Below are positions 1-57,032 of a stretch of 57,032 bases of DNA, piece after piece. Below the pieces are notes generated by a model, which worked only from the letters and a program-made list of their open reading frames with translations, searched no databases and was not told the origin of the DNA. Position numbers and translations under genes: made by a program. The stretch's first letter is position 1, and each line of letters begins with the position of its first letter. This stretch comes from a virus (lineage: Duplodnaviria; Caudoviricetes): positions 1-57,032 of IMG/VR virus record IMGVR_UViG_3300017963_000310; one strand, given 5' to 3'.

Positions 1-212
1 AACTCACTTTGACAAACAAGTCAAGACTATTGCTCTGTGTGTTAATCAACTCACTTTGACAAACAAGTCAAGACTATTAACGCACAGCATAATCAACTCA
101 CTTTGACAGACAAGTCAAGACTATTGCTCTGTGTGTTAATCAACTCACTTTGACAAACAAGTCAAGACTATTAACGCACAGCATAATCAACTCACTTTGA
201 CAGACAAGTCAA
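1..212. repeat. AT-rich 47-bp tandem repeat (about 4.5 units), continuous with the array at the right end
   Basis: Units start at 1, 48, 95, 142, 189: AACTCACTTTGACA(A/G)ACAAGTCAAGACTAT + 12-nt variable block (TGCTCTGTGTGT or TAACGCACAGCA) + TAATC; internal palindrome TTGAC-N6-GTCAA. Confidence 0.95.
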
Positions 213-1115: not shown

Positions 1116-2477
1116 CTATTCTGCGGGAAACGGCAGTTCGTCCAGAATAGCGTCTACCACCGCGCGCTTATCCCGCAGGGCGCGGTGGATCTTGGTGTCG
1201 ACCGTGCCCTTAGTCAACAGGTGGAGATACGTCACGGCGTGCTGCTGACCAGGGCGCATGATGCGGGCGCGGCTCTGTAGGTATGCGCCCAGATCAAAGG
1301 TCAAATCGTAGTATAGCACGTACCGGGCCCGGGTCATGCTGATGCCCTCGCTGCCCGCCTTGATCTGCACCACCAGGGCGTTATACATTCCGCTCTGCCA
1401 TTCGGCCAGTTGGTGGTGTGTTCCTGATAGCTCGGCGGCGCTGCGGCCAGCCCGGGCTAGCTCTTCTAGCACGAGCTGGATGCTGTGCCGGAACAGGCAA
1501 AACACCACCAGCGGCTCTCCGGGCGGCAAGTCGCGCAGCGTATCACGCAGCAGCATACGCTTAGCCCGAGAGATGACCTCGTGCGTTCCGTCATCATACT
1601 GTAGTAGCCCAGCGCTGGCGATCTGGTGCAGGCGCAGCAGCTTGGTCAGGGCGTTAGAGACAGTAACGATCCCGGCTGCGGTCCCGGCGATAAACTCTTT
1701 GTGCAGATCGCGGTATACCCGCTTGGCTTTGGGTTCTAGTACGGCGTAGCGCTCCTGGTCCACCTCGGGCGGTAGATCCAGCACATCCCGGGTACGTACC
1801 TGGACCGACAGGCTAGCGATCTTCTCGCTTAGCTCTCCCTGGTTGACCCACCGTATGACCTCGCGGTTTTCGAAGCCGCCCATGATCGCGTACCGAGCCC
1901 GGAAGTCCTCAAAGCGGGTCCCGAACACCCACGGGGCCAGAAAACGGAACTGAGCGTACACGTCGAGCGGTGAGTTGGGCATCGGGGTGCCGGTCAAAGC
2001 CAGTCGGCGAGGCATACGGCGGCCCAGGTGCCCGAAGAACTTGGAAGCTTTGCCCCCGGGGCTCTTGATACGGTGGCTTTCGTCCAACACGCACAAATCC
2101 CACTCGATAGAGCGCAGAGTAGCCGCCAGTACCGGACGCCAGGCGCTTTCATAGTTGAGTATGGCCCACAGTGGGCGGCGTTGCTGGAAAGCCTGTGTGG
2201 CATGGTTGGCCAACGCGGCGGCTTTGCCTTTAGAGTCACGCTGGTCGGGCGCTACCACGTACCACGGACGGCGCGACCAACGAACCACCTCTTCGGGCCA
2301 GACCGACAGCACGCCCTTAGGGCAGATTAGCAACACCCGGTTACAGTCCCAGCGGTCGGCCAGGTCGACAGCTATCCGGCTCTTACCGGCTCCCATGTCC
2401 AAGAACAGGCCAAACGCCTCGTACTGAGCGGCGGTATCCAGGGCGGCTTGCTGGTGTGGCCAGCGGGGCGGTGTCAT
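1116..2477 (-). CDS. SNF2-family (SF2) DNA helicase
   Basis: Motifs DMGAGKS, LDESHRIK, LTGTP, GSEGISMT, QSRARIMRPGQ. Confidence 0.92.
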   Translation of the reverse strand: MTPPRWPHQQAALDTAAQYEAFGLFLDMGAGKSRIAVDLADRWDCNRVLLICPKGVLSVWPEEVVRWSRRPWYVVAPDQRDSKGKAAALANHATQAFQQRRPLWAILNYESAWRPVLAATLRSIEWDLCVLDESHRIKSPGGKASKFFGHLGRRMPRRLALTGTPMPNSPLDVYAQFRFLAPWVFGTRFEDFRARYAIMGGFENREVIRWVNQGELSEKIASLSVQVRTRDVLDLPPEVDQERYAVLEPKAKRVYRDLHKEFIAGTAAGIVTVSNALTKLLRLHQIASAGLLQYDDGTHEVISRAKRMLLRDTLRDLPPGEPLVVFCLFRHSIQLVLEELARAGRSAAELSGTHHQLAEWQSGMYNALVVQIKAGSEGISMTRARYVLYYDLTFDLGAYLQSRARIMRPGQQHAVTYLHLLTKGTVDTKIHRALRDKRAVVDAILDELPFPAE

Positions 2478-2902
2478 GGCCTACTCCGGTATAACTGCTG
2501 TTCGGTGGTGACGACCCGGTGCAATCGTTGCTCACAGAGCAGCACTACCTCAAACGGGTCGCGTGGGTTGAGCTCGTCCAGTACTCGTAGGGCACTGCCA
2601 CAATGTGGGCAAGGATAGGGCAGTACATCTCCACATATCCGCAGCGCTTCCTCGGGGCTGGTGGCCACCCCGGCTCGAGCTCCCACCGACCGCCAACGTT
2701 TAAGCTGTGCGGCCTGGAGGGGCGTTAGCCGCCCCTCCTTGGTCTTGACCTCGATCGCCACAAACCGACCATGAAAGCAGGCAAACAGATCAGGGCGTCC
2801 ACGTTCGGTATACACTCCGGTGTTTTTGGTAGCGTCGGCCCCCTGATCCTGGATGGCCCGTATGATGGCCCGCACGACCGAGCTTTCAGAAGGGCAAGTC
2901 AT
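2474..2902 (-). CDS. VRR-NUC domain nuclease with C-terminal Cys motif
   Basis: GRPDL...FVAIEVKT..GRLTPLQ; CPHC; adjacent to SNF2 gene as is typical. Confidence 0.88.
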   Translation of the reverse strand: MTCPSESSVVRAIIRAIQDQGADATKNTGVYTERGRPDLFACFHGRFVAIEVKTKEGRLTPLQAAQLKRWRSVGARAGVATSPEEALRICGDVLPYPCPHCGSALRVLDELNPRDPFEVVLLCEQRLHRVVTTEQQLYRSRP

Positions 2903-3614
2903 CGTCCATCCTGGACAAGAACTCGGCTTCTAGCGCAGCCAGGTCTTGGTCGGTCAGCCTGCAGTGCAGGATATAGTTGACCGCAGCCCGGAGATCGGGC
3001 ACCTGCACCACGTCGTGCGCCTCTAGGCTAACTAATGATCCGATCACTATCACCGACTTACCCAGTGCGCGGGCGTATTCAATCTCACGGATAGTACCGA
3101 AGCCCCGGCCCGGGCCCTTTAGGTTGGCTAGCACCAAAGTGCAGTGCTGGATGGCAGCCCGGTTGATGCTGCTAACCGCCTGGGCCATGGCCTGGTGTAC
3201 GTCTTTCAAGTCGGGCAGCTCATAGGCGGTTAGTGGGTTAAAGCAGGCCACCCCTCGCTGGGTTAGTAGCTGCTCAGCCTGATCACGCCAGCAGGCCCCA
3301 TCTACTACGTCGATGTCGTCGATCGGCCCAGCCAGGTACACCATGACCGTGTCGCTGGGCCACTCATCCCGGGCCACCAACAGGGCGATGACGGCATAGC
3401 CTGCGATGTCTTTGATGGTGTCTTCCAGGCTCTCGTTGTCCGGCTGTTGGCCGTTTTGAGCCAGGTTACGCAGGCGCACGATCTTGTCGGTTAGGCGCAT
3501 AGCCACCCCGGGTAGCCCGAGGTGGTATATGTTGTCGCGCGAGTAGTCGCGGCCTTTACCGCCTAGCATCGTGTCTAGCTCGTCTAGTATGGCCTTAATC
3601 TCGGGCGCTGACAT
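2886..3614 (-). CDS. Fusion of DUF1599/Nmad1 (MazG-like all-alpha) domain and nucleoside 2-deoxyribosyltransferase/N-glycosidase-like domain
   Basis: N-term KGRDYS..RLTDKIVRL..ESLEDTIKDIAGYAVI; C-term VYLAGPI..WR..FNP..GTIREIEYARALGKSV; start at MSAPEIK overlapping purZ end. Confidence 0.75.
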   Translation of the reverse strand: MSAPEIKAILDELDTMLGGKGRDYSRDNIYHLGLPGVAMRLTDKIVRLRNLAQNGQQPDNESLEDTIKDIAGYAVIALLVARDEWPSDTVMVYLAGPIDDIDVVDGACWRDQAEQLLTQRGVACFNPLTAYELPDLKDVHQAMAQAVSSINRAAIQHCTLVLANLKGPGRGFGTIREIEYARALGKSVIVIGSLVSLEAHDVVQVPDLRAAVNYILHCRLTDQDLAALEAEFLSRMDDDLPF

Positions 3615-4689
3615 GCGGCACCTCAACGATCGACCACTCTGGCCCCCCGGTCCCAACGAACAGAACCGGTAGATCGAACTCCTGCTCTATCTGGCGCACG
3701 ACTACCCGCCCTTTTTCACTCAGGTCGTCCCAGCGGGTTTTGCCCTCGTCCTCTGGGCTGACGTAGTCCAGGAAGTTGAGCGCCAACCAATGCGGGCCGT
3801 TGACCCGGATGGCGTGTTCCACCAGGCGCGGATTAAACTCGGCCACGCGTCGAACTTTCTTGGTGACGGTGGTGTGCTCCAGCACCGGTCGGCCTACCCG
3901 GGCGCTTAGCTCTTCCCAGCTGATTTCGTCGGCAATCGGCCCGCTGTTGCCACCGACCCGGATCGGGTAGGTACGGATCACCAGGCCCACCTCGGTTACG
4001 GCATGCGGGGGCAGGCCGACGTCGGCGGCGAACTGGGCCGCGTTGGTGTCGTTACTGGTGACGTAGGGCCAGTGGCCATGGATCAAGGACAGCCCAAAGC
4101 CTTGCGCGCCCTCTAACAGGATGCGGCTGTTGGCCTGCCGGGCCTGGTGCAGCCATTGGGCGGTGTCAAGTAGGATACTCTGCAGCGCCCAACCGTTACC
4201 AAGCGTGTGATCGAACGCGACGTCGCGCATGCGCTTAAAATGGTCCGGGTTGCGCCGGATACGATCCAAACGCGCAGCGCCTACGCCTTCACCGGTGGAC
4301 CCGATGCGGGCGTGCAGTTCGCCTTGCGTGCCACCCTCTTCGGCGTGGTGTTGGTGCCCGATGATGCCCGCCCCCAGATCGACCCGCACGCGTTCGTAAA
4401 TGGTGGGGTCGACCTCGGCGATAGCGTCTAGCTCTTGCACTAAGAGCTTGGGGTCGACTAGTGCTCCGGCCCCGATGATGAGCGTAGCCTTGGGGTTAAT
4501 CCACCCACACGGCACGCTCTGCATGGCCCATGTGCGCCCTTGGTGTTTGAAGGAGTGGCCCGCGTTGGGTCCCCCTACCCGGACGTGTACGTCGTACTGT
4601 TGGGCTAGGTACTTAACGATGTTGCCTTTGCCCTCGCTGCCGTACTGGCCACCTATGATAGCTAGGACGGCGGGGTGTTGCTGTTGCAT
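3595..4689 (-). CDS. purZ: PurZ/PurZ0-like 2-amino-deoxyadenylosuccinate synthetase (adenylosuccinate synthetase family)
   Basis: GGQYGSEGKG (Ser at the PurA catalytic Asp position), GGPNAGH, IGSTGEGVG, EGAQG, TYPIRVGGNSGP, TTVTKKVRRV, NFLDY; short 364-aa form. Confidence 0.82.
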   Translation of the reverse strand: MQQQHPAVLAIIGGQYGSEGKGNIVKYLAQQYDVHVRVGGPNAGHSFKHQGRTWAMQSVPCGWINPKATLIIGAGALVDPKLLVQELDAIAEVDPTIYERVRVDLGAGIIGHQHHAEEGGTQGELHARIGSTGEGVGAARLDRIRRNPDHFKRMRDVAFDHTLGNGWALQSILLDTAQWLHQARQANSRILLEGAQGFGLSLIHGHWPYVTSNDTNAAQFAADVGLPPHAVTEVGLVIRTYPIRVGGNSGPIADEISWEELSARVGRPVLEHTTVTKKVRRVAEFNPRLVEHAIRVNGPHWLALNFLDYVSPEDEGKTRWDDLSEKGRVVVRQIEQEFDLPVLFVGTGGPEWSIVEVPHVSARD

Positions 4690-4967
4690 GATGGTTTGTG
4701 CTCCTCTGGTAAGTCGGTAGGTGCTAGGTCTAGTATCTGGTGGACGCTAGACAGGCGGCGCTGGACACCAGCGGCGATGCGCTGGGCACCAGCCTGGGCG
4801 AGTGCCAGGTTTTCACACGCTAAACCGTGCTTATGCTGGTCATCGGCGGTATCGATCAGTAGCTGTAGGTAGTCCAGGTGATCGAGGGCGCTAGCTAGGC
4901 CTTCGAGCATCTCGGGTAACCGTACCAAGTACGGCTGTAGTTGAACATAGCGGTTATCAGTCATCAA
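4662..4967 (-). CDS. Hypothetical helical protein
   Basis: 101-aa ORF overlapping both the polymerase and purZ ends. Confidence 0.6.
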   Translation of the reverse strand: MMTDNRYVQLQPYLVRLPEMLEGLASALDHLDYLQLLIDTADDQHKHGLACENLALAQAGAQRIAAGVQRRLSSVHQILDLAPTDLPEEHKPSCNSNTPPS

Positions 4968-6666
4968 GCATCTCCCCTAGACGCGTGCCGATCTTAACGT
5001 CCACCGCCATCGGGGCGCTGATCCAGCTGGGTACGTCCAGCATGATCTCCTCAACCGCGGCGGCTACCTCGTGTATGCCGTCCAGCGGCGTCTCTATCAG
5101 AAAGTCATCGTGGACCTGCAGCAGTAGATGGGTGTGGTCATCGCATAGCTCCTGGTCGATGCGCATCATGTCTTCGCGCATGATCTCGGCTACTGTGCCC
5201 TGGATGAGATTACTCATCGCTTTGTGGGCGGGGGCTCGTTTCCGGTCGTTGTAGTGCCGCCGTCGTCCGGTGTACAACTGGATGTAACCCCGAGTCTGGG
5301 CTATCCGTTGGGCGCGGTGGTACAGGTCCCGAAAACCGGGATACGCCCCGCGGTGTTGCCCTAGCAGCGCTTGGGCTTCTTTGTATGAGATGTGCAGGTC
5401 GTTAGCTAACGGGCCAGCCCCCATGCCGTACACCATGCCGAAGTTGATGCGTTTAGCAAAGTGCCGCGGTAAGCCTAGCTGCTCGGCGGTCGCGCTGTGT
5501 GGGTCCAGGCCCTGTTCTAACGCCCGGATCAAACCGGTCTCACGGGCATAGTGGGCCCCCACCCGTACCTCGGCTTGTTGGTAGTCGATCGCGATTAAAC
5601 CGTAACCCGGGCGGGCGACGATGACGTCCTTGACCTTGTACACCTCGGTGCGCACCGGCAGCGCTTGCAGGTTGGGGCTGTTGCACGACAGGCGGCTGCT
5701 GACCGTACCGGTGACGTTGAGGTTGGGATGCAGGATGTGTTGCCCGTCCATCTCCTCCAGAAAACGCCGGTAGTAACTGGTCAAGGCCCGGTGCCAGGCC
5801 CGGTAGGTTAGCATCAGCTGCGCGCCGGGGTGATCAGGCATGGTTTCTAATACATCGGCTGCTGAGCTCTGTACACCTAGCCAGGCCTGTACTTGCTTGG
5901 CGCTGCGCGGGTTGAGCTCGTAGCCTGCCAGAGCCTGAATACGGGCTTCGGTGACGGTGTGCTGCTCCTCGCACTCGGCCATGTATTGCTCGATCAGCGG
6001 TACGTCCAACTGCACGCCGTACAGCATCAAGCGGATAATCAGGTGGTTGTACGCGTTGACCTGCAGCCCTAGGTCGTGGAAATACCGCTTAGCCAGGTAT
6101 TGGTGCGCCAGCTCGGCCAGGGCCCAAGTCAGATCGACGTCCTGCACAGCGTACGACTCCACCAAGACAGCCGGTAACTGCCACATGTCGCCCTTGTTTA
6201 AGCCTCCACGCTTACCTAGCGCAGCCTGTAGCTCTCGCTCTTGGGCCTGGGCGTTGCTGTCGATGTACTTAGCCCCTAACTCTTTGAGCTTAAGACTGGG
6301 CTCGTTCTCGTTGAGCAGATGGATCAGGACCATGGTGTCCTCTAGCCGGACGGGGTGCACAGGAAAATCCCAGCCTGCTTGGACCATAAACGCTATATCA
6401 AAGGACCAGTTATGGCCCCGCCATACTGGCGCGTGATAGGTGGCTTCTATCAAAGCGGGTAGTTGTTCGAGCGGTAGGTTGTCCCCCTCTTTGTGCCGGA
6501 AAGGGAAGTAATAGCCTGTGCGTGGGGTACGCACCGCCACCCCGCAGATGCGATCACGGTGTGGCCCCCAGCGCTGTAACCCGGTGGTTTCCAGGTCGAT
6601 AGCTAACATCTCGCTGTTGGCGATGTCCTGCAGGGCGGCCTGAAAATCGGCCTGAGTGACTAGCAT
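4957..6666 (-). CDS. Family A DNA polymerase with 3'-5' exonuclease
   Basis: Exo DLETTG, HNWSFD, YAVQD; TGTVSSRLSCNSPNLQ; motif A DYQQAEVR; motif B AKRINFGMVYG; motif C QVHDD. Confidence 0.95.
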   Translation of the reverse strand: MLVTQADFQAALQDIANSEMLAIDLETTGLQRWGPHRDRICGVAVRTPRTGYYFPFRHKEGDNLPLEQLPALIEATYHAPVWRGHNWSFDIAFMVQAGWDFPVHPVRLEDTMVLIHLLNENEPSLKLKELGAKYIDSNAQAQERELQAALGKRGGLNKGDMWQLPAVLVESYAVQDVDLTWALAELAHQYLAKRYFHDLGLQVNAYNHLIIRLMLYGVQLDVPLIEQYMAECEEQHTVTEARIQALAGYELNPRSAKQVQAWLGVQSSAADVLETMPDHPGAQLMLTYRAWHRALTSYYRRFLEEMDGQHILHPNLNVTGTVSSRLSCNSPNLQALPVRTEVYKVKDVIVARPGYGLIAIDYQQAEVRVGAHYARETGLIRALEQGLDPHSATAEQLGLPRHFAKRINFGMVYGMGAGPLANDLHISYKEAQALLGQHRGAYPGFRDLYHRAQRIAQTRGYIQLYTGRRRHYNDRKRAPAHKAMSNLIQGTVAEIMREDMMRIDQELCDDHTHLLLQVHDDFLIETPLDGIHEVAAAVEEIMLDVPSWISAPMAVDVKIGTRLGEMLDD

Positions 6667-8103: not shown

Positions 8104-8886
8104 TTACTGACGGCAGCTAAGCAGCAGGTCGTACAGCGTAGCGAGAGTATGCCCCTCTTCCACCTCGCCGGTCTCGGTGTTGGTCCCGGCTACGCGAAAG
8201 GTGGGGCCTATCTGCTGGGCGAACGCATGGCCGCGAGTCTTGGCCATGTAACCGCGGCGCTCGGTGGTTAAGACCATGCGCCGTCCATCCTTAACATACA
8301 CGTACCATACGAAATCGGCGAAGCCCGCCAGGCTGGTGCCCAGCTTACTGGTAAACAGTGGCACAACTTCGATAGGGTCGACGCCGGTCGTGTCTTCGAT
8401 GTTGGGCGGGTATATCTCTTTGGGTAGCGCTGTCATGATGACGTTGACGCGTAAGTCCCGGAACATCCGGCCCAGGCGGCGCAGCGCGGCGGTGTTGACC
8501 CCGTAGTCCTCCAGGTATATGTCGTTCGGCCCGCGGCGGGCGTCGGTGCGGGCTTTTTCCTCAGCGGTCTGGGCTAGCATGACGTTCTGCAGCTCTGTCC
8601 CGCTGTCGATCACTACGGTCTTGATCTGGCTATAGGGCTCCTCCTCGGCCTGGGCCAGCTTCCAAAAGATCTCCTCGACCGCGGCAGCGGTGGGAGTATC
8701 GGCGATCAGGATGTCGTCGCGGTGAGTCAACGATAGCATGCCCCCCTCGACGTTTAGGAACAGGACCTGGCGCATCGCCTCGTGGTCCCCTGCGGTGGCG
8801 GCCAAGCTGGTCTTACCGGCTCCGGCCTTGCCATACAGCAGCAGGTTAAACTGCCACGGTATGTTCGTACTACTATAGATCGTCAT
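8104..8886 (-). CDS. AAA_24 / Sak4-like ssDNA-annealing ATPase
   Basis: LLYGKAGAGKTS Walker A, TVVIDSGTELQ Walker B. Confidence 0.85.
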   Translation of the reverse strand: MTIYSSTNIPWQFNLLLYGKAGAGKTSLAATAGDHEAMRQVLFLNVEGGMLSLTHRDDILIADTPTAAAVEEIFWKLAQAEEEPYSQIKTVVIDSGTELQNVMLAQTAEEKARTDARRGPNDIYLEDYGVNTAALRRLGRMFRDLRVNVIMTALPKEIYPPNIEDTTGVDPIEVVPLFTSKLGTSLAGFADFVWYVYVKDGRRMVLTTERRGYMAKTRGHAFAQQIGPTFRVAGTNTETGEVEEGHTLATLYDLLLSCRQ

Positions 8887-9908
8887 GCATTAGCCTCTTC
8901 TCCGGGCCCAAAACCCGGCTTGTACTGGTACTCGGTCTGGAGCAGCCAGTCGGTGTCTTCGCCCCGGAGTTCAGCCAGGCAGAACTCGCGCACCAGGCAG
9001 CCCCGGCACTCCAGGCCGGTCATGTTGCGCCACGGGTGCATCTTGACCCGACCGATGGCCCAGGCGGCCCGCTGTACGATCTGCTTCCAGAAGGAAGCGA
9101 CGAGCTCGGGACTGCGATAGGCGAACAGCGGATCGAAGAACTTGTTATCGGCCAGTTTATCGGCCATGTCGACATAGTCAGCGGGGTCTAGGCCCGCAGC
9201 CAGTAGGGCCTCGCGATAGGTGGCCCAGTCGGTAATACAGGCGGCCCGGCTCATGCTGCCGTCTTTGTTACGCTTCGGCCAGCGCGGCGTCTCGGACCGT
9301 ATTTGAAACAGGCAGGTGCCGGTCGTTTCCACGCCGTTGCGCGTTAGCAGGTGCTGGTAGGCGGCCAGCTGCAGGTTGGTGTCTTCTGTCTCGGGACCCT
9401 GCAGCGCTTTGCGGGTTTTCCAGTCGACCAGCCACACTAGGCCGCTAGCTGGGTCGCGGGCCACCCAGTCGACTACACCCACGAAGCCCGCAAAGGGCGA
9501 CAGCGGGGCGCACAGCTTTTGCTCGACCAGGGGCAGCCGAACGCCGTCCGGGTCGGTAAACCATACCGTTTGCCAGCCGAGCTTGTTGATCTCGTCGATT
9601 GTGCGGTATACAATACCGATACTGAGCTCTAGTGCCTCATACCCTTCGGCCCGAGCGTCTACTGACAGCTGGCGGTCGTTAGCGTCTTGCTCCCAGCGGT
9701 GCCGCAGCGTGTCCTCAACCGGGCGATCTAGCAGGTGGGCGGCGATGCCCTGGTGTACGAAGCTGCCTAGGCGCATCGGCCCTGACACGGTGCGCCGTTG
9801 GATACCGCGCTTGTAGGCTAGCGCCCAGCGGTATGGGCAGGTAAAGCTTACGATCTGTGAATAACTAAGGTGGTGCTTTTGGGCCCACCAAGTGTTGTTT
9901 CGGGTCAT
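8883..9908 (-). CDS. PD-(D/E)XK Cas4/RecB-like exonuclease
   Basis: LSYSQ..CPYRW, LGSFVH, GVVD..LVDWKT, QLAAY, C-terminal CxxC..C cluster. Confidence 0.88.
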   Translation of the reverse strand: MTRNNTWWAQKHHLSYSQIVSFTCPYRWALAYKRGIQRRTVSGPMRLGSFVHQGIAAHLLDRPVEDTLRHRWEQDANDRQLSVDARAEGYEALELSIGIVYRTIDEINKLGWQTVWFTDPDGVRLPLVEQKLCAPLSPFAGFVGVVDWVARDPASGLVWLVDWKTRKALQGPETEDTNLQLAAYQHLLTRNGVETTGTCLFQIRSETPRWPKRNKDGSMSRAACITDWATYREALLAAGLDPADYVDMADKLADNKFFDPLFAYRSPELVASFWKQIVQRAAWAIGRVKMHPWRNMTGLECRGCLVREFCLAELRGEDTDWLLQTEYQYKPGFGPGEEANA

Positions 9909-12153: not shown

Positions 12154-13170
12154 CTACTCCAGCCGGTCGGAGGCGGCCCCCGGTGTGATACCAGAGCGGA
12201 AATCGGCGTTATCCCCGGCTTCTCGCCCTTTGCGGGCGGCTTGTAGGCTGTAGCCGCCCTTGGTCGACCCGTTGATGGGTCGGCTGCGAACCTTGGTGTT
12301 GAAGGCCTCGGCCACGCGATCGTGCGCGTCCTGCTGGGGAATGACCACCAGCGCGGTCTCCTGCGCGTGTCGGCCTGCGATCCGGTCGGCCCGTTCGCGC
12401 AGGCGGCGGGCGGCGGCCACCAAGAAGGTCTTTTTCCAGGCCATGCCGTCTACGCCCTTGTTGGGGGTCTCGGCGGCGGCCAGCTGGTAAGCGGCCTGCA
12501 GCTGTTCCAGCAAGCTGGTCATCATCACACAGGCGGCCTGCACGCTGACCTCTTCGCCCACGAATAGCGAGTGGGTGTTGCCCATGGTGTAGCCGTGCGT
12601 CAGAGTGACGCTGGCCACCGCCTGGGTAAGGTGTGCGCGCCAGGCGCTCTGTTCCCAGTATCGGCCCGTCAGGACCATGTCGTGCGTGATGATCACAGCC
12701 TGCACGCCCTCGCTGCGTCGGACCTCGGCCAGCGTCAAGCTGTAGCGGGCCAACAGCATGTGCACCCGGTCCCAGGCCAACTCACGTTCGGGGTCGCCGG
12801 TGTTGGGATGTTCGGCCAACGCTACCAGCTTCTCGATGCGGGCCAAGATGTGTTCGGGCGTGACGACCTTTTCGTCGGGCGTATCGTTGACTTCGGGCGC
12901 GGGGGCGGCTGACTGGGCCCCGGAGCGGTACAGAACCCGGATGTAGGACCGAGTGCGCTCCAAGACTTCATAGTGGCAGGGCTGCCCGGCGATGGCCAGG
13001 GCCCGGTCCACCTCGGCCAACAGGTTATCCAGGTGCGCGTTGCTGATGCCGACGCGGCCAAAGATCACCACGGCACCCTGAGAGTGGCTCTCGAGCGCGG
13101 TGCTCTTGAACCGGTCTTCGAAGTCCCGCAGGACCTCCTGCAGTCGTGTTTCGAGCGGCGTGCTGTTCAT
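12154..13170 (-). CDS. DUF2786-domain protein
   Basis: ILARIEKLVALAEHPNT..ERELA..LLARYSL; C-term AARKGREAG. Confidence 0.75.
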   Translation of the reverse strand: MNSTPLETRLQEVLRDFEDRFKSTALESHSQGAVVIFGRVGISNAHLDNLLAEVDRALAIAGQPCHYEVLERTRSYIRVLYRSGAQSAAPAPEVNDTPDEKVVTPEHILARIEKLVALAEHPNTGDPERELAWDRVHMLLARYSLTLAEVRRSEGVQAVIITHDMVLTGRYWEQSAWRAHLTQAVASVTLTHGYTMGNTHSLFVGEEVSVQAACVMMTSLLEQLQAAYQLAAAETPNKGVDGMAWKKTFLVAAARRLRERADRIAGRHAQETALVVIPQQDAHDRVAEAFNTKVRSRPINGSTKGGYSLQAARKGREAGDNADFRSGITPGAASDRLE

Positions 13171-13186
13171 GGGGTCCCTCCTGGGA

Positions 13187-13483
13187 CTAAGTCGTGCTAG
13201 GCTTAAGGTGTTGGATACGGCGGCGGTGGCTGCGCGGTATGTTGGTGCGCCAGGTCTGCCGATGGCGACGGATCTTTTTGGACACGTCCCGCAGCGGCGG
13301 CGGGTCGGGCGTCACGAGGACGTCCTCTACTGTGCGGGCAAAGGCGCGCGGGTTGTGCGCCTTGCGCCACCATTCCCCCTCTTGACGGCGCACAGCCTGG
13401 CGCTCGGCGATGCGCATTTCGCGGGTGTACCACCACTTGCCGGTGTTACGCTTCTTGAAGGTCTTGTCGTAGTAGTGTGCCAT
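13187..13483 (-). CDS. Small Arg/Lys-rich hypothetical protein
   Basis: 98-aa ORF with CCCAGGAGGG RBS. Confidence 0.65.
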   Translation of the reverse strand: MAHYYDKTFKKRNTGKWWYTREMRIAERQAVRRQEGEWWRKAHNPRAFARTVEDVLVTPDPPPLRDVSKKIRRHRQTWRTNIPRSHRRRIQHLKPSTT

Positions 13484-13539
13484 CGTGCGCCCTCCTGGGC
13501 TGTGAGAGGGCCCCGCAGGGCCCCGGGCGGTTGGGCGCG

Positions 13540-14013
13540 TTAGCTAGGCAGCTGCGCCCGGTACTTCACGAGAATGTTGCTGGGCGTCCAGGCGAGATCA
13601 CCTACCTGGACCAGGCGCTGGTCGGCGTTCAGCTGCTCCATGATCGCTTCGTCATACACGTAGAACGCGATCACATCGCCCTCGACGGTCATAAAATCGA
13701 GCTCGGGGGCCAGGCTGGTCAAGTGCTCCAGCGATTGGCGGCGGGCCTTGGCGATGCTGTCGGGGCTGGTGCTGCCACCTGTCAAGCGTAGCGCGTACTC
13801 CCACGCGATCTGATCGGCATATGTTTCGGCGGGAGTGAAGGGGCGCACCAACGAGGCAGCGGCTTTGGTGTGGTACTTCATCTTAGGGCTGTTGCCCAGG
13901 ATGATGCTGTCTTCGTGCGTGGTAATGAACCAGGCTGTTTGTGGCGGGCGTCCACGGCGGGTGAACTTGACCTGGGTGCCGGGTTCGAGCTTGCGGGCTT
14001 CGTTGATATCCAT
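13540..14013 (-). CDS. Hypothetical early protein
   Basis: Start MDINEARK with CCCAGGAGGG RBS, directly below promoter at 14051. Confidence 0.7.
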   Translation of the reverse strand: MDINEARKLEPGTQVKFTRRGRPPQTAWFITTHEDSIILGNSPKMKYHTKAAASLVRPFTPAETYADQIAWEYALRLTGGSTSPDSIAKARRQSLEHLTSLAPELDFMTVEGDVIAFYVYDEAIMEQLNADQRLVQVGDLAWTPSNILVKYRAQLPS

Positions 14014-14050
14014 TGGGGGCCCTCCTGGGCTAGTGTTTGATCGTACTTCT

Positions 14051-14096
14051 ATTATACCACACTTTGAGCCTCGTGTCAATAGTACTCTGGTACTAT
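14051..14096 (-). promoter_or_regulatory. Repeated early promoter P1: TTGACA-17-TATAAT plus operator ATAGTAC-N4-GTACTAT
   Basis: -10 at 14051-56, -35 at 14074-79, palindrome 14079-14096. Confidence 0.9.
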
Positions 14097-14130
14097 ATTG
14101 AGTCGGGGGCCCGGGCGGGCCCCCATGGGC

Positions 14131-14535
14131 TTACTCGTGAAGCCAGTTGTCAACCACGGGATACAGGATCAGCAGATCGCCGTCCTGGGTCTGGGCCAAG
14201 ATCGGCCAGGTGATCGGGTAGAAGGAGTCACGGAACGGCTCACCCCACTCGACCGCGGCGCGGTCCAGATAGTGTTGGTAGCTGGCTTGGGTCATATAGG
14301 CGACCTTGTGATGACCGTCGTAACCACCGCAGCCCGTCAGCTGGAACTCGTCCAGCAGATAGCTATCGTAAACGTGGTCATCCCACCAGGGCACCACAGG
14401 GGCCGCGGTGGCTGGCACTGGGCCCGCCTGGGCGGCGGTCTGGGCGGCTTGGACTGTGGCGCAGCCCGGGCACAGGTCATCGCCCGGGTCGGGCACACCA
14501 CAACGTGCGCAAACGGGGGAATACGGCTTGATCAT
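14131..14535 (-). CDS. Hypothetical protein with N-terminal CxxC..CxxC
   Basis: CARC..LCPGC; CAGGAGG RBS. Confidence 0.65.
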   Translation of the reverse strand: MIKPYSPVCARCGVPDPGDDLCPGCATVQAAQTAAQAGPVPATAAPVVPWWDDHVYDSYLLDEFQLTGCGGYDGHHKVAYMTQASYQHYLDRAAVEWGEPFRDSFYPITWPILAQTQDGDLLILYPVVDNWLHE

Positions 14536-14576
14536 GATGGACCTCCTGGGTCACATGTGTACGGATCGATGCTCCT

Positions 14577-14622
14577 ATTAAATCACGTCCCGGGCAGCCT
14601 GTCAATGGTACCGCGGTACCAT
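14577..14622 (-). promoter_or_regulatory. Promoter TTGACA-17-TTTAAT with operator ATGGTAC-CGCG-GTACCAT
   Basis: -10 at 14577-82, -35 at 14600-05, palindrome 14605-14622. Confidence 0.8.
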
Positions 14623-14626
14623 GCGC

Positions 14627-14968
14627 TTACGCCATCAGGCTAACGACGCCGGACAGGATGAAGAGCGCAGCGCTGAGCAGACCAGGGTTGGGCATCAGAT
14701 CGATGCTCTTGCGGGCGGCGGCACGCGCAGCGCGGGCGGTGGGGTTGATGCCCAGCATTCGCACGGCGGCGTCGGCGGCTTGAGTCCAGTCGGCGGCGGG
14801 GATGGCCAGGCGCTGGCCGGTGCTCTCGCAGATCACGACCAGATAGCGGCGGCTGCGGGACAGGCCGACGATGACCTCATCCTGATCGCCAACCAGGACC
14901 ATGCCGTCCTGTACGCGGGCGCTGGTGTGCTTGCTGACTGCTTGGGCGAACTCTTGCGGGCTGCTCAT
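14627..14968 (-). CDS. Hypothetical protein with C-terminal TM segment
   Basis: Start MSSPQEF with CCCAGGAGGG RBS. Confidence 0.65.
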   Translation of the reverse strand: MSSPQEFAQAVSKHTSARVQDGMVLVGDQDEVIVGLSRSRRYLVVICESTGQRLAIPAADWTQAADAAVRMLGINPTARAARAAARKSIDLMPNPGLLSAALFILSGVVSLMA

Positions 14969-15022
14969 CGGGTGCCCTCCTGGGCTATTGATGCGGGCGG
15001 CGGTGCCCTCATCTCTACTTCT

Positions 15023-15068
15023 ATTATACCACATCTTGAGCCTCGTGTCAATAGTACTCTGGTACTAT
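15023..15068 (-). promoter_or_regulatory. Repeated early promoter P2 plus operator
   Basis: -10 at 15023-28, -35 at 15046-51, palindrome 15051-15068. Confidence 0.9.
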
Positions 15069-15072
15069 ATGG

Positions 15073-15103
15073 CCCAAGACCCCTAAAGCTTAGGGGTCTT
15101 GGG
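15073..15103. other. Perfect 13-bp-stem hairpin, related to hairpins at 16.3 kb
   Basis: CCCAAGACCCCTA-AAGCT-TAGGGGTCTTGGG. Confidence 0.6.
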
Positions 15104-15216
15104 GGCAGCCCTCCGGAGCCCTCCGAAGGGCCACGGAGAGGCGGGCCCGCTGCGGGGCCTCGGGCCCGTGCCATGCGGCTCTGGGCCCGAGGCGGGCTTC
15201 CGGTGAGCTCCGGGAC

Positions 15217-15921
15217 CTATTCCAGCCGGAGCGCTAAGCGTAGGACCTTAACCCGGACGGAGTAGCAGCGGGCGGCTGCCGAGAACACCTGTTCCACCGT
15301 GAGCTCGTTGTTGGCGAAGAGCTCACCGCCCTCGGCCTTGACCTTGGCCCGGGCCCACTCCAGCAACCGGTTTTCGGCCCGTACCAGGGCGCAGAACGCG
15401 CTATCGGTGATGCCCTCTTCCAGCTCGTCGATCATGCTGGAGCCCTCGCTGTAGCTGATGGCTTCCTGGCCTACGGCTTCGTACACCGGCTTGGCCAACC
15501 AGTCGGCGATGTCCTTAGTGCGTTTGTACAGCGCGGCGGCTTGGCGGTACGCGGCTTTGACGTCGGTGACTGCGGCAGCCTGGGTGGCTGGCCCCAGGTC
15601 GACGATGGTGATCGGGCCGAATGGTCCGGGCAGCCCAGCGGCGTTAAGCAGGTCGAAGATTTCGTAATCGTCGAGCTCGTCGCTGCCATAAGCTTCGCGG
15701 ATAGTCCACTCGATGTTGTCGGCCAGCACGGTGACCTGCCCGTTGCCGGTGTCGACCATGGCCCGCATCAGGTCGCCTGCTGTCTCGCTGTTGTCCAGGT
15801 CCAGCACGCGGTTGTCGCTAACGAATAGGGCGGTGGGGTCGACGGGTTCGCCCCCAAGCGTCCACAGGATCAGCGCGGCGTGTCGGCGTTCGATCTGTCG
15901 TTCAAAGGCGTTGACGTCCAT
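15217..15921 (-). CDS. Hypothetical acidic early protein
   Basis: 234-aa ORF with CCCAGGAGGG RBS. Confidence 0.7.
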   Translation of the reverse strand: MDVNAFERQIERRHAALILWTLGGEPVDPTALFVSDNRVLDLDNSETAGDLMRAMVDTGNGQVTVLADNIEWTIREAYGSDELDDYEIFDLLNAAGLPGPFGPITIVDLGPATQAAAVTDVKAAYRQAAALYKRTKDIADWLAKPVYEAVGQEAISYSEGSSMIDELEEGITDSAFCALVRAENRLLEWARAKVKAEGGELFANNELTVEQVFSAAARCYSVRVKVLRLALRLE

Positions 15922-15978
15922 AGTATTGCCCTCCTGGGGCTGTGGGGCCCGATGTGGGCCCCGGCTATTGATGGTGGC

Positions 15979-16191
15979 TTACCCGGCGGCTGCGATCCTC
16001 CAGAACCACTCCAGCAGCTCGTCCATGCCCTCGTCGTCCAGGATCATCTGGGCTGCCTGGTACAGGGCGCTGGACTTGTCCAGCTCGGAGAGGAAGAACT
16101 CGGCCATACGACGGGCCTTGGCGGGGGAGCTCATGTGGGCGATCCGTTGGATCATAAGCTTCTGTCCGTTGGTGATCTTGATCTCGTTCAT
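15979..16191 (-). CDS. Small hypothetical early protein
   Basis: 70-aa ORF with CCCAGGAGGG RBS below P3. Confidence 0.7.
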   Translation of the reverse strand: MNEIKITNGQKLMIQRIAHMSSPAKARRMAEFFLSELDKSSALYQAAQMILDDEGMDELLEWFWRIAAAG

Positions 16192-16247
16192 CTGTTGTGC
16201 CCTCCTGGGCTGGCGACGAGAGCGGTGTTGCCCTCATCTCTACTTCT

Positions 16248-16276
16248 ATTATACCACATCTTGAGCCTCGTGTCAA
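16248..16276 (-). promoter_or_regulatory. Repeated early promoter P3, lacking the operator
   Basis: -10 at 16248-53, -35 at 16271-76; upstream sequence is CCCCTA..TAGGGG hairpin repeats instead. Confidence 0.88.
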
Positions 16277-16361
16277 TCCCCAATCTTTAGGGGGTCGGCG
16301 CAAGACCCCTAAGCTTTAGGGGGTTGACCTCCTAAAGCCTGGGGGGTTGACCTCCTAAGCC

Positions 16362-16673
16362 TTAGGGGGCTAGCAGGTCGTCCAGGTCGGGCATGCCTCG
16401 CGGGACCCAGTACAGCAGCATAGTGCAGTCAGTCTCGCCACGCAGCTCGGCGGGCAAGCTGTCCAGGATCGATAGGTAGGTCTGGGTGTTGGGGTGGTAG
16501 GCTTCGGTGCCGCCAGCGGCGGTCAAGCCAGCCGCTAGGGCTTCCAGGCTTACAATGGCGGTGGGCAGCTGGTAGCCCTCGTTGAACACGCCATCGGGCG
16601 TGCCGCGGGCGATGTAGACTTCGCTCTCGGGGTCCATGGCTTGCAGTGCGGTGATCAGCTCTTTAACCTTCAT
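16362..16673 (-). CDS. Hypothetical protein (MKVKELI..L..MDPE motif)
   Basis: Common small phage protein N-terminus; CCCAGGAGGG RBS. Confidence 0.7.
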   Translation of the reverse strand: MKVKELITALQAMDPESEVYIARGTPDGVFNEGYQLPTAIVSLEALAAGLTAAGGTEAYHPNTQTYLSILDSLPAELRGETDCTMLLYWVPRGMPDLDDLLAP

Positions 16674-16750
16674 GGTGTGCCCTCCTGGGCTCGGGGCTTG
16701 CGCCCTCGATGTGATAGGGGTGCCCGGGGCTTGCGCCCCGGGCGGCTGCC

Positions 16751-16945
16751 CTAGGGCAGCCATTCGTGCTTGTACGGCGAGAAGACTTTGGTCATGCTGG
16801 TCATGCCGGACACCAGGTAGCGGAAAAAGCCAGGGCCGGTGCTGTCAGTGTCAGTCACCACGACCAACGTCCAGGACTTGGTGCCCTTTTCGCGGACCAG
16901 GATCACCTGGCCAACTCGGGGGGTGCGCTTGCGGGTGTTGCTCAT
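16751..16945 (-). CDS. Small beta-rich protein, paralog of 17035..17241
   Basis: QVILVREKG..W.LVVV..D..G.GFFRYLVSG; CCCAGGAGGG RBS. Confidence 0.7.
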   Translation of the reverse strand: MSNTRKRTPRVGQVILVREKGTKSWTLVVVTDTDSTGPGFFRYLVSGMTSMTKVFSPYKHEWLP

Positions 16946-16987
16946 CGTGTGCCCTCCTGGGCTGCTAGTGCGCTCAACTATACTTCT

Positions 16988-17033
16988 ATTATACCACACC
17001 TTGGGCTTCGTGTCAATAGTACTCTGGTACTAT
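16988..17033 (-). promoter_or_regulatory. Repeated early promoter P4 plus operator
   Basis: -10 at 16988-93, -35 at 17011-16, palindrome 17016-17033. Confidence 0.9.
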
Positions 17034-17034
17034 G

Positions 17035-17241
17035 TCACTCGTTCGACATGAAAACCGGCCCGTGGCGTAGGTCCTTCCACTCCATCAGGCCGGGCACGAA
17101 CGTGCGCTCCTCGGGCTGGGCTCCTAGCACCCGGTACCGGAACCAGCCGTCCGGGTCCACGTGCACGACCAGGACCAGGTCCCACAGGATGCGGCCCTGA
17201 TCGCGCACGAAGATCACCTGGTACTGCTGCAGCGTGTCCAT
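17035..17241 (-). CDS. Small beta-rich protein, paralog of 16751..16945
   Basis: QVIFVRDQG..W.LVLV..DPDGWFRYRVLG; GAGG RBS. Confidence 0.65.
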   Translation of the reverse strand: MDTLQQYQVIFVRDQGRILWDLVLVVHVDPDGWFRYRVLGAQPEERTFVPGLMEWKDLRHGPVFMSNE

Positions 17242-17248
17242 GGCGGCC

Positions 17249-17875
17249 TCACTCCCGGGCCGATCGGGTGGCGACAGGCAGCCCGCGGTACAACACCTGG
17301 GCAGGGTCGAAGGGCCGAGGCTCGGGCAGGACCCGGTACACCATGCGGTAGGTGCGGGCTTTGTAGCCACGGATGTGGCGTAGCTTTTGTAGCCGCGGGT
17401 CCTGCCGGATGATGTGAAAGGCGGTGCCGTGCCGGTGTGGGCCCTCGACCACTACTACCACTATGTCCTTGCGGGTGAAAGCCTGGACTACGCCCTCGAA
17501 CCCGCAGGTAGCATACGCGTGCGCAATCCGCTGCGCGCGGCCCTCGACGGTGTCCCGGTAGGGCTGGCAGTCGAGGTTGGGCAACCTATAGCCGATCTCG
17601 ACCCAAGTGTTGTCGACGTCAACGATGTCAGTCTCGATGTCCAGCGCTTTGCGCAGCGCGTGGCATACGGACGAGTAGAAATCCTGTCCGATGTCGGGGC
17701 TGCCGTCCGGGGTGTTCCAGCGATCGAAGCTCAGAACGATGTGATCAGCTTCGACGTGCTCGGGCCATACCTCAAAGCGCCCCCAGTCGCCCTCGGCTGC
17801 GCCCTGTTCCTGGACCTGGACACAAATCTCGAAGAGCATGGCTTCCAGCTCGTGCAGAGTCGTATCTTTAAGCAT
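17249..17875 (-). CDS. Hypothetical early protein
   Basis: Start MLKDTTL with CCCAGGAGG RBS. Confidence 0.7.
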   Translation of the reverse strand: MLKDTTLHELEAMLFEICVQVQEQGAAEGDWGRFEVWPEHVEADHIVLSFDRWNTPDGSPDIGQDFYSSVCHALRKALDIETDIVDVDNTWVEIGYRLPNLDCQPYRDTVEGRAQRIAHAYATCGFEGVVQAFTRKDIVVVVVEGPHRHGTAFHIIRQDPRLQKLRHIRGYKARTYRMVYRVLPEPRPFDPAQVLYRGLPVATRSARE

Positions 17876-17903
17876 AGTGTTGTCCTCCTGGGACTGTGGG
17901 GCC

Positions 17904-18155
17904 TTAGCCCCAGCGGATGATAGTGGCTTGCTCGGTCCGGAGGTCAACCCCGCCCCCGCGCTGGATCACGCCGTCCCAGAAGCCGGTGATCACGTAGCCG
18001 TTGCTACGCTCTACCGTCAGCTGGCGCTGGTTGTGTTCCACCAGCAGGATCGTGCCGATGGGCAGCTTGCCTCGGCACCAGCCGGGCTGCCCCTCTTCCA
18101 AGAACGCTTGCGCGTCCTGGGGGAGTTCGGGGCTGGTCGTGCGCTGGGTTGTCAT
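17904..18155 (-). CDS. Hypothetical early protein
   Basis: Start MTTQRTT with GAGGAGGG RBS below P5. Confidence 0.65.
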   Translation of the reverse strand: MTTQRTTSPELPQDAQAFLEEGQPGWCRGKLPIGTILLVEHNQRQLTVERSNGYVITGFWDGVIQRGGGVDLRTEQATIIRWG

Positions 18156-18210
18156 CGGGTCCCTCCTCGGGAGCCTGGTGGACGATGCGGGGTGCCCGTC
18201 CTCATTTTCT

Positions 18211-18256
18211 ATTATACCACATCTTGGGCCTCGTGTCAATAGTACTCTGGTACTAT
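18211..18256 (-). promoter_or_regulatory. Repeated early promoter P5 plus operator
   Basis: -10 at 18211-16, -35 at 18234-39, palindrome 18239-18256. Confidence 0.9.
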
Positions 18257-18637
18257 ATCGGGGTCGGGTGGCATGATCTGGCACTGGTGCAGATAAGTGC
18301 GGCGTGCGCGTACTGCGGCGGGATAGTCTTCGAAGGGACCAGCTACCCGATGCCACCCGGCCAGCGGCGCGGTGGATAGGATGCAGTTATGCCGTCCGAC
18401 ATGTTCCTCTTCACTACCGGCCCGTCGCAACACCAGCCAGCCCTCGCTTAACAGGCTGGCGGCCACGTATAACCGCTCAGTGCCGTGTGGGTGGGTGCGG
18501 GCCTCTTCCTGGTTGAAGTCGTCCGCTAAGCGCAGCGCCTCCTCTTCGGACGAGCACACCGCGCTAACAACGGGGGTTACCCGGTGGCCAAGCGGGTTAG
18601 CGTAGCGTCCGATGCGGGCTACGATCCAGCAAATCAT
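18236..18637 (-). CDS. Hypothetical protein
   Basis: 133-aa ORF with AGGAGG RBS; 3' end runs into P5. Confidence 0.6.
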   Translation of the reverse strand: MICWIVARIGRYANPLGHRVTPVVSAVCSSEEEALRLADDFNQEEARTHPHGTERLYVAASLLSEGWLVLRRAGSEEEHVGRHNCILSTAPLAGWHRVAGPFEDYPAAVRARRTYLHQCQIMPPDPDIVPEYY

Positions 18638-18684
18638 AGGGTCCTCCTAACAGACCCGGGCCACTAGGGCCCGGGTGGGTGTCA

Positions 18685-18894
18685 CTACGTGCGCCATTCA
18701 GGCGAACGCTCAAAGGTGGGCGCGGGGATCGGCGGTACATCGCCGCGGGCCATCCGGTGCGCGTGATCCAGGCAGTAGTGGCCTGGGATAGGGGTGGGAT
18801 TGGAGCAGCCGGGCCACTGGCACGGGTTCCAATCTTTGCGGGGCTGCTGGTCGGGCAGCTGGCTATAGTTCGGGTTAACCACCTTACGGGACAT
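18685..18894 (-). CDS. Small Zn-finger-like protein
   Basis: CQWPGC..YCLDH; GAGGAGG RBS. Confidence 0.6.
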   Translation of the reverse strand: MSRKVVNPNYSQLPDQQPRKDWNPCQWPGCSNPTPIPGHYCLDHAHRMARGDVPPIPAPTFERSPEWRT

Positions 18895-18925
18895 ACAAAA
18901 TCCTCCTCTCACCTAACCGGACGGT

Positions 18926-18947: not shown

Positions 18948-18956
18948 TGTAATGCG

Positions 18957-19571: not shown

Positions 19572-19607
19572 GCGATGCCTCCTGGGCTAGTGTTTAATCG
19601 TACTTCC

Positions 19608-56894: not shown

Positions 56895-57032
56895 GACAAG
56901 TCAAGACTATTGCTCTGTGTGTTAATCAACTCACTTTGACAAACAAGTCAAGACTATTAACACACAGCATAATCAACTCACTTTGACAAACAAGTCAAGA
57001 CTATTAACACACAGCATAATCAACTCACTTTG
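56894..57032. repeat. Right-hand part of the 47-bp tandem repeat
   Basis: Same unit as 1-212; variable blocks TGCTCTGTGTGT then TAACACACAGCA twice; last 11 nt equal nt 1-11. Confidence 0.95.

Follow-up and report, generated by a model that had tools for sequence, protein, structure and literature searches.

The window analysed here, the whole 57,032-bp IMG/VR record IMGVR_UViG_3300017963_000310 of an uncultured tailed phage, has a left arm that is transcribed leftwards. Within this arm, a minus-strand operon that runs from position 6666 down to 1116 encodes a family A DNA polymerase (PolA), a protein of 101 amino acids (ORF101, for open reading frame), a PurA-like enzyme, a fusion of a DUF1599 domain with a nucleoside deoxyribosyltransferase (NDT) domain, a VRR-NUC nuclease, and a SNF2-family helicase. 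We regard this operon as probably a 2-aminoadenine (Z) DNA module of an undescribed lineage, in which the PurA-like enzyme and the NDT domain would carry out the central steps.

All genes of the operon are on the minus strand and overlap their neighbors. PolA (4957..6666; 569 aa) combines a polymerase domain (DNA_pol_A in Pfam, 2.7e-67) with a 3'-5' exonuclease domain (DNA_pol_A_exo1, 9.2e-11). The PurA-like gene, our PurZ-family candidate (3595..4689; 364 aa), carries the motifs GSEGKG, PIRVGGNSGP, and TTVTKKVRR and matches Adenylsucc_synt (PF00709, E 3e-57) as well as phrog_1211, "2-aminooxy adenylosuccinate synthetase" (E 9e-79). ORF101 (4662..4967) lies between these two and had zero matches in Pfam and PHROGs searches; a counterpart is absent from the relative L004, where the gap between PolA and PurZ is 5 nt. 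Directly downstream of the PurZ-like gene is the two-domain fusion gene (2886..3614 from an ATG, with the ORF extending to 3656 from an upstream TTG). Its DUF1599 (Nmad1) domain is a three-helix module (3360..3614; PF07659), and its NDT-superfamily domain is DmtZ-like (2886..3347; PF05014 and PF15891). In the Pfam scan of the fusion, DUF1599 covered residues 53–93 at 26.9 bits (cut-off 25) and Nuc_deoxyrib_tr residues 106–204 at 35.5 bits (cut-off 28.8); the DUF1599 domain scanned alone scored 29.1 bits. The most likely start of the fusion is the ATG at 3614, for a length of 242 aa; a GAGG lies 5–6 nt upstream, and a database prediction (P0001) gives the same 242-aa product. The overlaps are 11 nt between PolA and ORF101, 28 nt between ORF101 and the PurZ-like gene, and 20 nt at the end of the latter, inside which the ATG of the fusion is found. 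An initial annotation of this DNA had reported a PurA-family gene with these three motifs in an overlapping operon with PolA, followed by the fusion; the first point is confirmed by the ORFs, Pfam, and PHROGs, and the second by Pfam.

For the PurA-like enzyme, the residues examined are those of VpPurZ, with roles taken from section 8 of a preprint (bioRxiv 10.1101/2025.10.22.683976). In the alignment, Y16, S18, T273, F306, and Y309 of the window protein correspond to F12, S14, T262, F295, and Y298 of VpPurZ. Among these, S18 in GSEGKG stands where PurA has the catalytic Asp13, and Y16 for F12 is a conservative exchange between aromatic residues. Ser, Thr, Phe, and Tyr occupy the S14, T262, F295, and Y298 columns in all 12 rows checked from the clade of the window protein, and the F12 column has Tyr in nine, Phe in two, and Ala in one. 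The P-loop residue is Asp in all five archaeal PurA rows and in Escherichia coli PurA, and the T262 column has Gly in these enzymes. At the F295 and Y298 columns, true PurA has Lys/Asn and a non-aromatic residue; the window pair is Phe/Tyr as in PurZ, unlike most PurZ0, which have Met and Gln.

The window protein is at most 37% identical to any of the 219 matching phage records, the best being the Gordonia phages Frizzle and Ghobes. Its identity is 37% to the PurZ0 of Ghobes, which belongs to a separate clade, and 34% to the PurZ of phiVC8. The top match among solved-structure sequences is a true PurA, 5k7x/2d7u (E 8e-64, residues 6–351), followed at lower significance by 7vf6, described as PurA-like (2.6e-45), phiVC8 PurZ 6fko (1e-42), and S-2L PurZ 7odx (1e-27). 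This ranking argues against PurZ membership, and a tree was therefore needed. The proteins 5k7x/2d7u, presumably from Pyrococcus horikoshii, are short archaeal-type PurA that resemble the window protein in length (both ~340–360 aa), but they have GDEGKG, RVGAGPFP, and GTVTGRRRRVG where the window protein has GSEGKG, RVGGNSGP, and TTVTKKVRRV.

Cultured Z phages, IMG/VR loci, 80 genome loci, and E. coli supplied the PurA-like genes for the trees. FastTree was run with 104 rows, the short rows L044 and L112 being left out, and IQ-TREE (LG+C20 PMSF, quick search) with a chosen subset of 60 rows. The two trees agree, with archaeal Asp-type short PurA basal. The Ser-type sequences form one superclade (FastTree 99 and IQ-TREE 100, both starred), with the archaeal Asp-type rows outside. 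In the IQ-TREE result, the viral sequences cluster (support 88, unstarred), the PurZ0 clade of Ghobes, Goodman, Wayne, HunterDalle, and Hiyaa has support 100 (starred), and the window protein falls in an 11-row clade (96, starred) within a 15-row window clade. This window clade, PurZ0, and a metagenome pair together make up a 25-row group with support 93 (unstarred) and an internal order that the tree does not settle; in FastTree, the window clade is sister to PurZ0 (91, unstarred). Because all five VpPurZ residues are matched and because of this tree position, we assign the PurA-like protein to the PurZ family, as a member of a new viral clade next to PurZ0. The initial annotation had read the Ser in the P-loop as a mark of PurZ or PurZ0, and both residues and trees agree in keeping the protein apart from true PurA.

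A further point against a Z genome is that Ser-type enzymes are common in bacterial chromosomes, in operons without known function. A Ser in the P-loop is not confined to phages, and Ser alone is therefore no proof of Z. The PurA-like enzyme and the NDT fusion might instead serve another role in the nucleotide pool, such as purine salvage or a different modified purine, in a phage with ordinary adenine in its DNA. Such a role would fit with the Ser-type genes at no fewer than 70 bacterial or archaeal loci whose neighbors are unrelated to phage replication, with a sister viral group of Asp-type enzymes in the same PolA/Dut/NDT context, and with the lack of a DatZ or Dut in the window to exclude dATP. 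It is nevertheless unlikely, given that all five VpPurZ residues for handling dGMP and ATP are present, that the protein lies inside a viral group holding both of the assayed kinds (PurZ and PurZ0), and that the NDT domain has Asp and Asn states of the DmtZ type that are specific to PurZ-linked NDTs (see below).

The bacterial and archaeal genes deserve a separate description. About 70 genome loci (among L045–L122), often on contigs of Mb size, have genes for short PurA-like proteins of the Ser type (e.g., L046:2762-3790, L047:5992-7044, and L049:6013-7089). Their conserved neighbors encode a dCTP-deaminase-like protein, a deoxynucleoside kinase, DUF7002, a CapP-like M78 peptidase, RNase_H_2/DUF429, and an AAA ATPase. 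These operons look like uncharacterised stress or defence operons, and a PADLOC search with the Ser-type bacterial and archaeal PurA-like proteins gave no match. The viral PurA-like clade with a P-loop Asp (L005:10423-11460, L012:8690-9781, L013:7254-8336, L016:8642-9724, L028:2831-3916, and also L137, L138, L182–L184, and L193) carries NAEH instead of NAGH and is devoid of the TTVTxKxRR motif. Both trees place it within the Ser-type superclade, next to PurZ, and its genes adjoin PolA and NDT, with Dut in addition in L137 and L138.

The closest PurZ-like relative (56% identity) is on L043, an 18-kb contig binned with a Paludibacter metagenome-assembled genome (MAG). A PolA gene, whose product is 43% identical to that of the window, lies directly upstream of the PurZ-like gene, and L043 most likely stems from a phage and was assigned to a bacterial MAG by binning. 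For the PolA of the window itself, no PolA in 50,697 phage records exceeds 29% identity. It is approximately 26% identical to the PolA of Ghobes and 27% to the DpoZ of the phiVC8 group, the same as to PolA of Bacillus phages (purZ status unchecked), and it is 37–45% identical to the PolA that adjoins PurZ-like genes in uncultured relatives. PolA is named here as a candidate Z-tolerant replicase.

The NDT domain has a published counterpart. According to the main text of a study published in February 2026 (PMC12884076), PurZ0 phages carry DmtZ, which hydrolyses dAMP and, in addition, transfers deoxyribose 5-phosphate to Z. The same text describes DmtZ as usually beside or fused to DutZ, an enzyme of the dUTPase family that turns dATP and dGTP into monophosphates, and reports assays of the chemistry of DmtZ, DutZ, and DUF5664. 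Section 11 of the preprint mentioned above connects PF05014 with dZ contigs and demonstrates a transferase that prefers dA (bioRxiv 10.1101/2025.10.22.683976). In our alignment, Y93, D99, P127, N151, G173, and E177 of the fusion correspond to Y6, D12, P57, N77, G99, and E103 of Ghobes DmtZ, such that the catalytic triad Tyr6/Asn77/Glu103 is matched by Y93/N151/E177. By residue numbering, the DmtZ of Ghobes is gp53, and gp51 was rejected as a candidate. For Asp12, the same study describes an essential role and proposes a contact with N6 of adenine, with a lid residue, Trp124, coming from the second monomer (PMC12884076). The Asp12 column has Asp in the window, in 26 of 28 fused forms, and in all eight DmtZ proteins of PurZ0 phages; the Asn77 column has Asn in the window, in 22 of 28 fused forms, and again in all eight. 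Among 15 NDT-like proteins from records without a PurA-like gene, the former column is Asn in 12 and the latter Asp in all 15.

The structural comparison points the same way. The AlphaFold2 (AF2) model of the fusion has pLDDT 85.5 and pTM 0.75, and a Foldseek search with the NDT model retrieved NDTs, MilB, BcmB, and DNPH1 at E 2e-5 to 1e-3. The matches 7m5h, 6evs, 7o62, MilB, and DNPH1 are structures that are named for DmtZ in the main text of PMC12884076. The nucleoside 5'-monophosphate N-glycosidases DNPH1/Rcl, MilB, and BcmB (fold matches at E 8e-5 to 1e-3) share with the window domain the lack of an acidic residue where transferases bind the 5'-OH (F172/G173 in the window). They differ from it in sequence (12–19% identity), in having the catalytic Asp where the window has Asn151, and in lacking its Pro127, a residue called typical of transferases in the main text of PMC12884076.

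Three results weigh against equating this domain with DmtZ. The Trp124 lid is not kept, with E198 in the window and Phe in 22 of 28 fused forms at a position where the alignment is uncertain. In an unrooted NDT tree of 88 domains and 145 columns (rows shorter than 90 residues and duplicates dropped), the window domain belongs to a 51-row clade (98, starred) of nearly all fused forms plus the unfused NDTs of the same PurZ clade, and the actinophage DmtZ, a distinct clade, lies in the other half alongside generic NDT-like proteins. Moreover, a hidden Markov model of the NDT clade scores generic phage NDT-like proteins (1e-15 to 1e-19) above DmtZ (7e-11 to 3e-5). We conclude that the NDT domain is DmtZ-like by its sequence signature, and that its monophyly with the characterised DmtZ is not supported by the tree. 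The initial annotation had proposed a dAMP N-glycosidase or base-exchange enzyme, and this role would be in keeping with the DmtZ signature and with the tight linkage to purZ.

This linkage was examined in 38 IMG/VR loci gathered with the fusion profile, to which metagenome contigs add 68 loci. A PurA-like gene is within the fetched flank in 14 of the 38 IMG/VR loci. Eight of the 38 have an NDT at least 41% identical to that of the window, and PurZ is present in seven (in the flank in six, and across the record ends in L008, a complete record); the remaining locus is a fragment of 4.6 kb. The flank lacks a PurA-like gene in 24 records, of which L008 alone has one anywhere in the record, and three complete records with more distant NDT-like proteins have none. 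The DUF1599 and NDT fusion itself was found in 30 loci (metagenome contigs and L004), which are not independent and represent roughly six lineages by a manual count on the NDT tree. A PurZ-like gene is upstream in all 13 fusion loci with at least 1800 bp of upstream sequence, so the co-occurrence of the fusion with purZ, which the initial annotation had listed as a check, held at every locus long enough to reveal it. The search for carriers in cultured phages gave none, with 0 of 30 matched phage records covering at least 80% of the query.

The relatives differ from the window in one respect that bears directly on the pathway. Their usual gene order is PolA, PurZ, Dut, DUF1599::NDT, VRR-NUC, and SNF2, and in 19 of 21 loci with at least 600 bp upstream, the fusion has a gene of the dUTPase family directly upstream. 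This Dut is 40–48% identical to Ghobes DutZ in most loci and 35–37% in distant ones (the copy in L004, at 8559-9047, matches PF00692 at E 9e-26), and where present it is always between purZ and the NDT gene. The exceptions are L131, in which PurZ and the fusion adjoin just as they do in the window, and L151, in which another ORF takes the position of Dut. L131 has a downstream ORF of 242 aa (L131:3381-4106) with motifs that, read by eye, are MazG-like (such as ...GEACEALEEWR... and ...ELADAVIRIMD...), and this ORF has no homolog in the window. These observations suggest that Dut may be exchangeable for a MazG-type enzyme. The window is the only genome among those compared that has the fusion but no recognisable deoxynucleoside triphosphate (dNTP) pyrophosphatase. 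The frequent Dut counts against a fusion that replaces both DatZ and MazZ, as the initial annotation had proposed: with a DutZ-like gene usual beside the fusion, DUF1599 normally co-exists with a known type of dATP/dGTP pyrophosphatase, and the proposal is weakened.

The absence in the window of a recognisable DatZ or DUF550 MazZ, also part of that annotation, was borne out by six-frame family searches. Across the whole window, these searches found no HD, DUF550, dUTPase, MazG, YfbR-like, HD_3, or DUF5664 match. As controls, the dUTPase search detected the gene in five of five related virus records and the HD_3 search detected DatZ in three of three known PurZ phages, so these two negatives carry weight. 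The DUF550 search had no match in the control genomes either and is a negative without a positive control. Pfam scans of 45 further ORFs of the window revealed no nucleotide-metabolism enzyme. Deducing the missing genes from the closest relative, L004, was also considered and rejected: downstream of the shared synteny, L004 has unrelated genes on the opposite strand and no nucleotide enzyme.

The completeness of the contig bears on these absences. Both of its ends carry a 47-bp tandem array with a 94-bp super-unit, at 1..212 (4.5 copies by Tandem Repeats Finder) and 56923..57032 (2.3 copies, 100% matches; no strand is assigned to either array), and the two ends are 98% identical over 110 bp by blastn. 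The arrays are probably the point at which the assembler cut a circular or terminally redundant genome, and they could also be an origin or packaging region; the convergent early and late arms lie on either side of them. Three contigs, the longest of 57,092 bp, are on record with the identical fusion protein. The contig thus probably closes on itself and gives the complete phage genome, and the enzyme absences are probably valid for the whole genome. The opposing evidence is the CheckV completeness estimate of 74% and the IMG/VR class, linear. A DatZ, DutZ, or MazZ gene could be encoded in a part that the contig missed, a view with which these two estimates and the lack of a recognised endolysin or holin among the late ORFs scanned with Pfam would agree. 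We find it very unlikely in view of the array at both ends, the near-equal length of the longest contig with the same fusion, and the position of Dut in the relatives, since in the window the two genes between which it would stand overlap by 20 nt.

If the operon is a Z module, its first step would be the joining of dGMP and aspartate by the PurZ-like enzyme, as its residues and tree position suggest, and host PurB and kinases would complete dZTP. ATP is the likely phosphate donor, because the Phe/Tyr pair is present and, in VpPurZ, the adenine of ATP is stacked by F295 and Y298 (bioRxiv 10.1101/2025.10.22.683976). The main text of PMC12884076 states that PurZ0 prefers ATP and PurZ prefers GTP; we infer the donor from the residue-level statement rather than from this text. 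In the second step, the NDT domain, judging from its active-site signature and its linkage to purZ, would cleave dAMP into adenine and deoxyribose 5-phosphate and may hand the sugar phosphate to free Z. Both steps would first require that dATP be turned into dAMP and dGTP into dGMP. In nearly all relatives, this would be the task of the DutZ-like enzyme encoded between purZ and the fusion. In the window, the Dut gene would have been lost or was never present, and with no Dut the step would fall to the DUF1599 domain or to host enzymes; alternatively, DUF1599 may partner the NDT domain in nucleotide binding or in assembly. The whole scheme is a prediction from sequence.

The known systems resemble this scheme in part. 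PurZ0/DmtZ phages also have a PurA-family enzyme with a P-loop Ser next to PolA, an NDT enzyme with the Tyr/Asn/Glu triad, Asp12, and Pro57, and neither DatZ nor MazZ; unlike them, the window has neither Dut nor DUF5664. Phage Wayne likewise has an NDT domain fused to a second nucleotide-metabolism domain, but the partner is a C-terminal Dut in Wayne (PMC12884076, main text) and an N-terminal DUF1599 in the window. The phiVC8 cluster of PurZ, DatZ, MazZ, and DpoZ shares S14, T262, F295, and Y298 and a nearby PolA with an exonuclease domain; unlike this cluster, the window has no HD-domain DatZ and no MazZ of the DUF550 or MazG type. We take cyanophage S-2L to have the same type of cluster.

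What the DUF1599 domain does is the point on which readings of the operon diverge. Its AF2 model has helices at residues 3–23, 27–54, and 63–81 with pLDDT 83–85, and 15 residues are invariant in all 13 aligned N-terminal domains (K20, Y24, N28, I29, G36, R40, D43, K44, R47, E61, D65, D69, Y73, I76, and W85). The family is large, with 14,915 representative clusters at E up to 0.001. When ten of the best 150 representatives were scanned against Pfam, six were long proteins (261–307 aa) with an N-terminal DUF1599, all of them NDT fusions; three had a lone DUF1599 behind an unassigned N-terminal part; and one had a tandem DUF1599. Tandem proteins (P0065, P0073, P0097, P0098, and P0183) have two matched stretches in ~180–235 aa. 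There are thus hints in these sequences that the working unit of DUF1599 may be a pair of modules.

The initial annotation had suggested that this all-alpha domain is a dNTP pyrophosphatase, and the profile, sequence, and fold comparisons gave this no support. Kinship of DUF1599 with DUF5664 was rejected at the profile level tested, with hhalign probabilities of 0.06% for thin profiles and 0.16% for profiles of 143 and 121 rows. No PDB sequence matched DUF1599 even with E values up to 10 allowed, a Pfam search with a limit of E 1 returned DUF1599 only, and a search of the ESM Atlas returned DUF1599 clusters only. The best Foldseek match to the model of the N-terminal domain had E 0.27, which is not significant. 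Among the non-significant rows were 2p06, 6j22, 2gta, 1yvw, 2yxh, and 1y6x (TMq 0.39–0.57), six MazG, HisE, or AF_0060-type entries mixed with rows of ribosomal proteins. The titles listed in a literature search on DUF1599 contained nothing apparently biochemical, and those for Nmad1 were unrelated.

A pyrophosphatase activity of DUF1599 is still conceivable by analogy, and we treat it as doubtful. The reading draws on the charged face of invariant residues, on the fusion analogies, namely the NDT-Dut fusion of Wayne and fusions with DUF5664, and on the non-significant Foldseek rows. The DUF5664 fusions are P0277 (336 aa) and P0302 (275 aa), in which an N-terminal NDT-like DUF4406 is joined to a C-terminal DUF5664 (dATP/dGTP diphosphohydrolase); they account for two of 120 listed proteins with precomputed Pfam assignments and, by these assignments, are a third kind of NDT-plus-pyrophosphatase fusion. 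The more specific idea that DUF1599 is a new dNTP pyrophosphatase feeding dAMP to the NDT domain, so that purZ and the fusion would make up a minimal two-gene route to adenine-free DNA, is rather improbable in our view. If true, it would be a third independent solution beside DatZ/MazZ and DutZ/DmtZ.

A non-catalytic DUF1599 within the same Z module is quite possible, and we hold this tentatively. The domain would then serve the NDT domain by binding nucleotides or bases, by regulation, or by oligomerisation, the window would be a Dut-loss variant, and the phage would rely on host dNTP pyrophosphatases or on dAMP from degraded host DNA. This agrees with the co-occurrence of the domain with Dut in 19 of 21 relatives, with the complete relative G005, in which PurZ and Dut occur together with an unfused NDT and DUF1599 is absent, and with the interleaving of fused and unfused NDTs in the NDT tree. 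It also agrees with a model of only three helices and with the absence of profile similarity or significant fold similarity to any pyrophosphatase. The 15 invariant and mostly charged residues, by comparison, resemble a catalytic or ligand site more than they do a scaffold (the ladder E61/D65/D69 and K20/R40/K44/R47), and NDT-like proteins are fused elsewhere to proven dNTP pyrophosphatases, both in Wayne (PMC12884076, main text) and in the two DUF5664 proteins. The MazG-like ORF of the Dut-less L131 likewise suggests that the pyrophosphatase step is needed.

The remaining genes of the operon are the VRR-NUC nuclease (2474..2902, minus strand; PF08774, phrog_93), which follows the fusion in relatives too, and the SNF2-family helicase (1116..2477, minus strand; PF00176, PF00271, phrog_62), which is syntenic in relatives. 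The fusion overlaps the nuclease gene by 17 nt, and the latter overlaps the helicase gene by 4 nt. In PADLOC, neither the PurZ-like protein nor the fusion had a match. Farther along the window, ~30 early ORFs on the minus strand (12154-26729) have hardly any family assignment; the exceptions are DUF2786/DUF7168 at 12154-13170 and HNH_3/NUMOD4 at 26391-26729, which are weak and under the Pfam cut-offs.

The novelty of this operon is partial. The initial annotation had envisaged a new architecture of the Z pathway, and the role of the NDT domain is not new: it corresponds to DmtZ of PurZ0 phages (PMC12884076), and an association of NDT with dZ has been reported (bioRxiv 10.1101/2025.10.22.683976), each as given in the main text. 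PMC12884076 was the only relevant publication in a literature search on DmtZ. The fusion to DUF1599 and the Dut-less state are not described in the main texts searched. The terms DUF1599, Nmad, and PF07659 appear in the main text of neither publication, and "fused" or "fusion" does not appear in the main text of the preprint.

Phages with Z genomes are relevant to the evasion of phage defence and to synthetic biology. The lineage described here adds a third PurZ clade, with PurZ0-like ancestry and ATP-site residues of the PurZ type, and a new domain partner for a DmtZ-type enzyme. As a natural genome without Dut, it is a system for asking how dATP stays out of DNA, and the locus places DUF1599, a large orphan family, in a concrete and testable biochemical context. 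The clade of Asp-type PurA-like genes with the same operon context and the bacterial Ser-type genes suggest that this enzyme family has a chemistry reaching beyond Z genomes.

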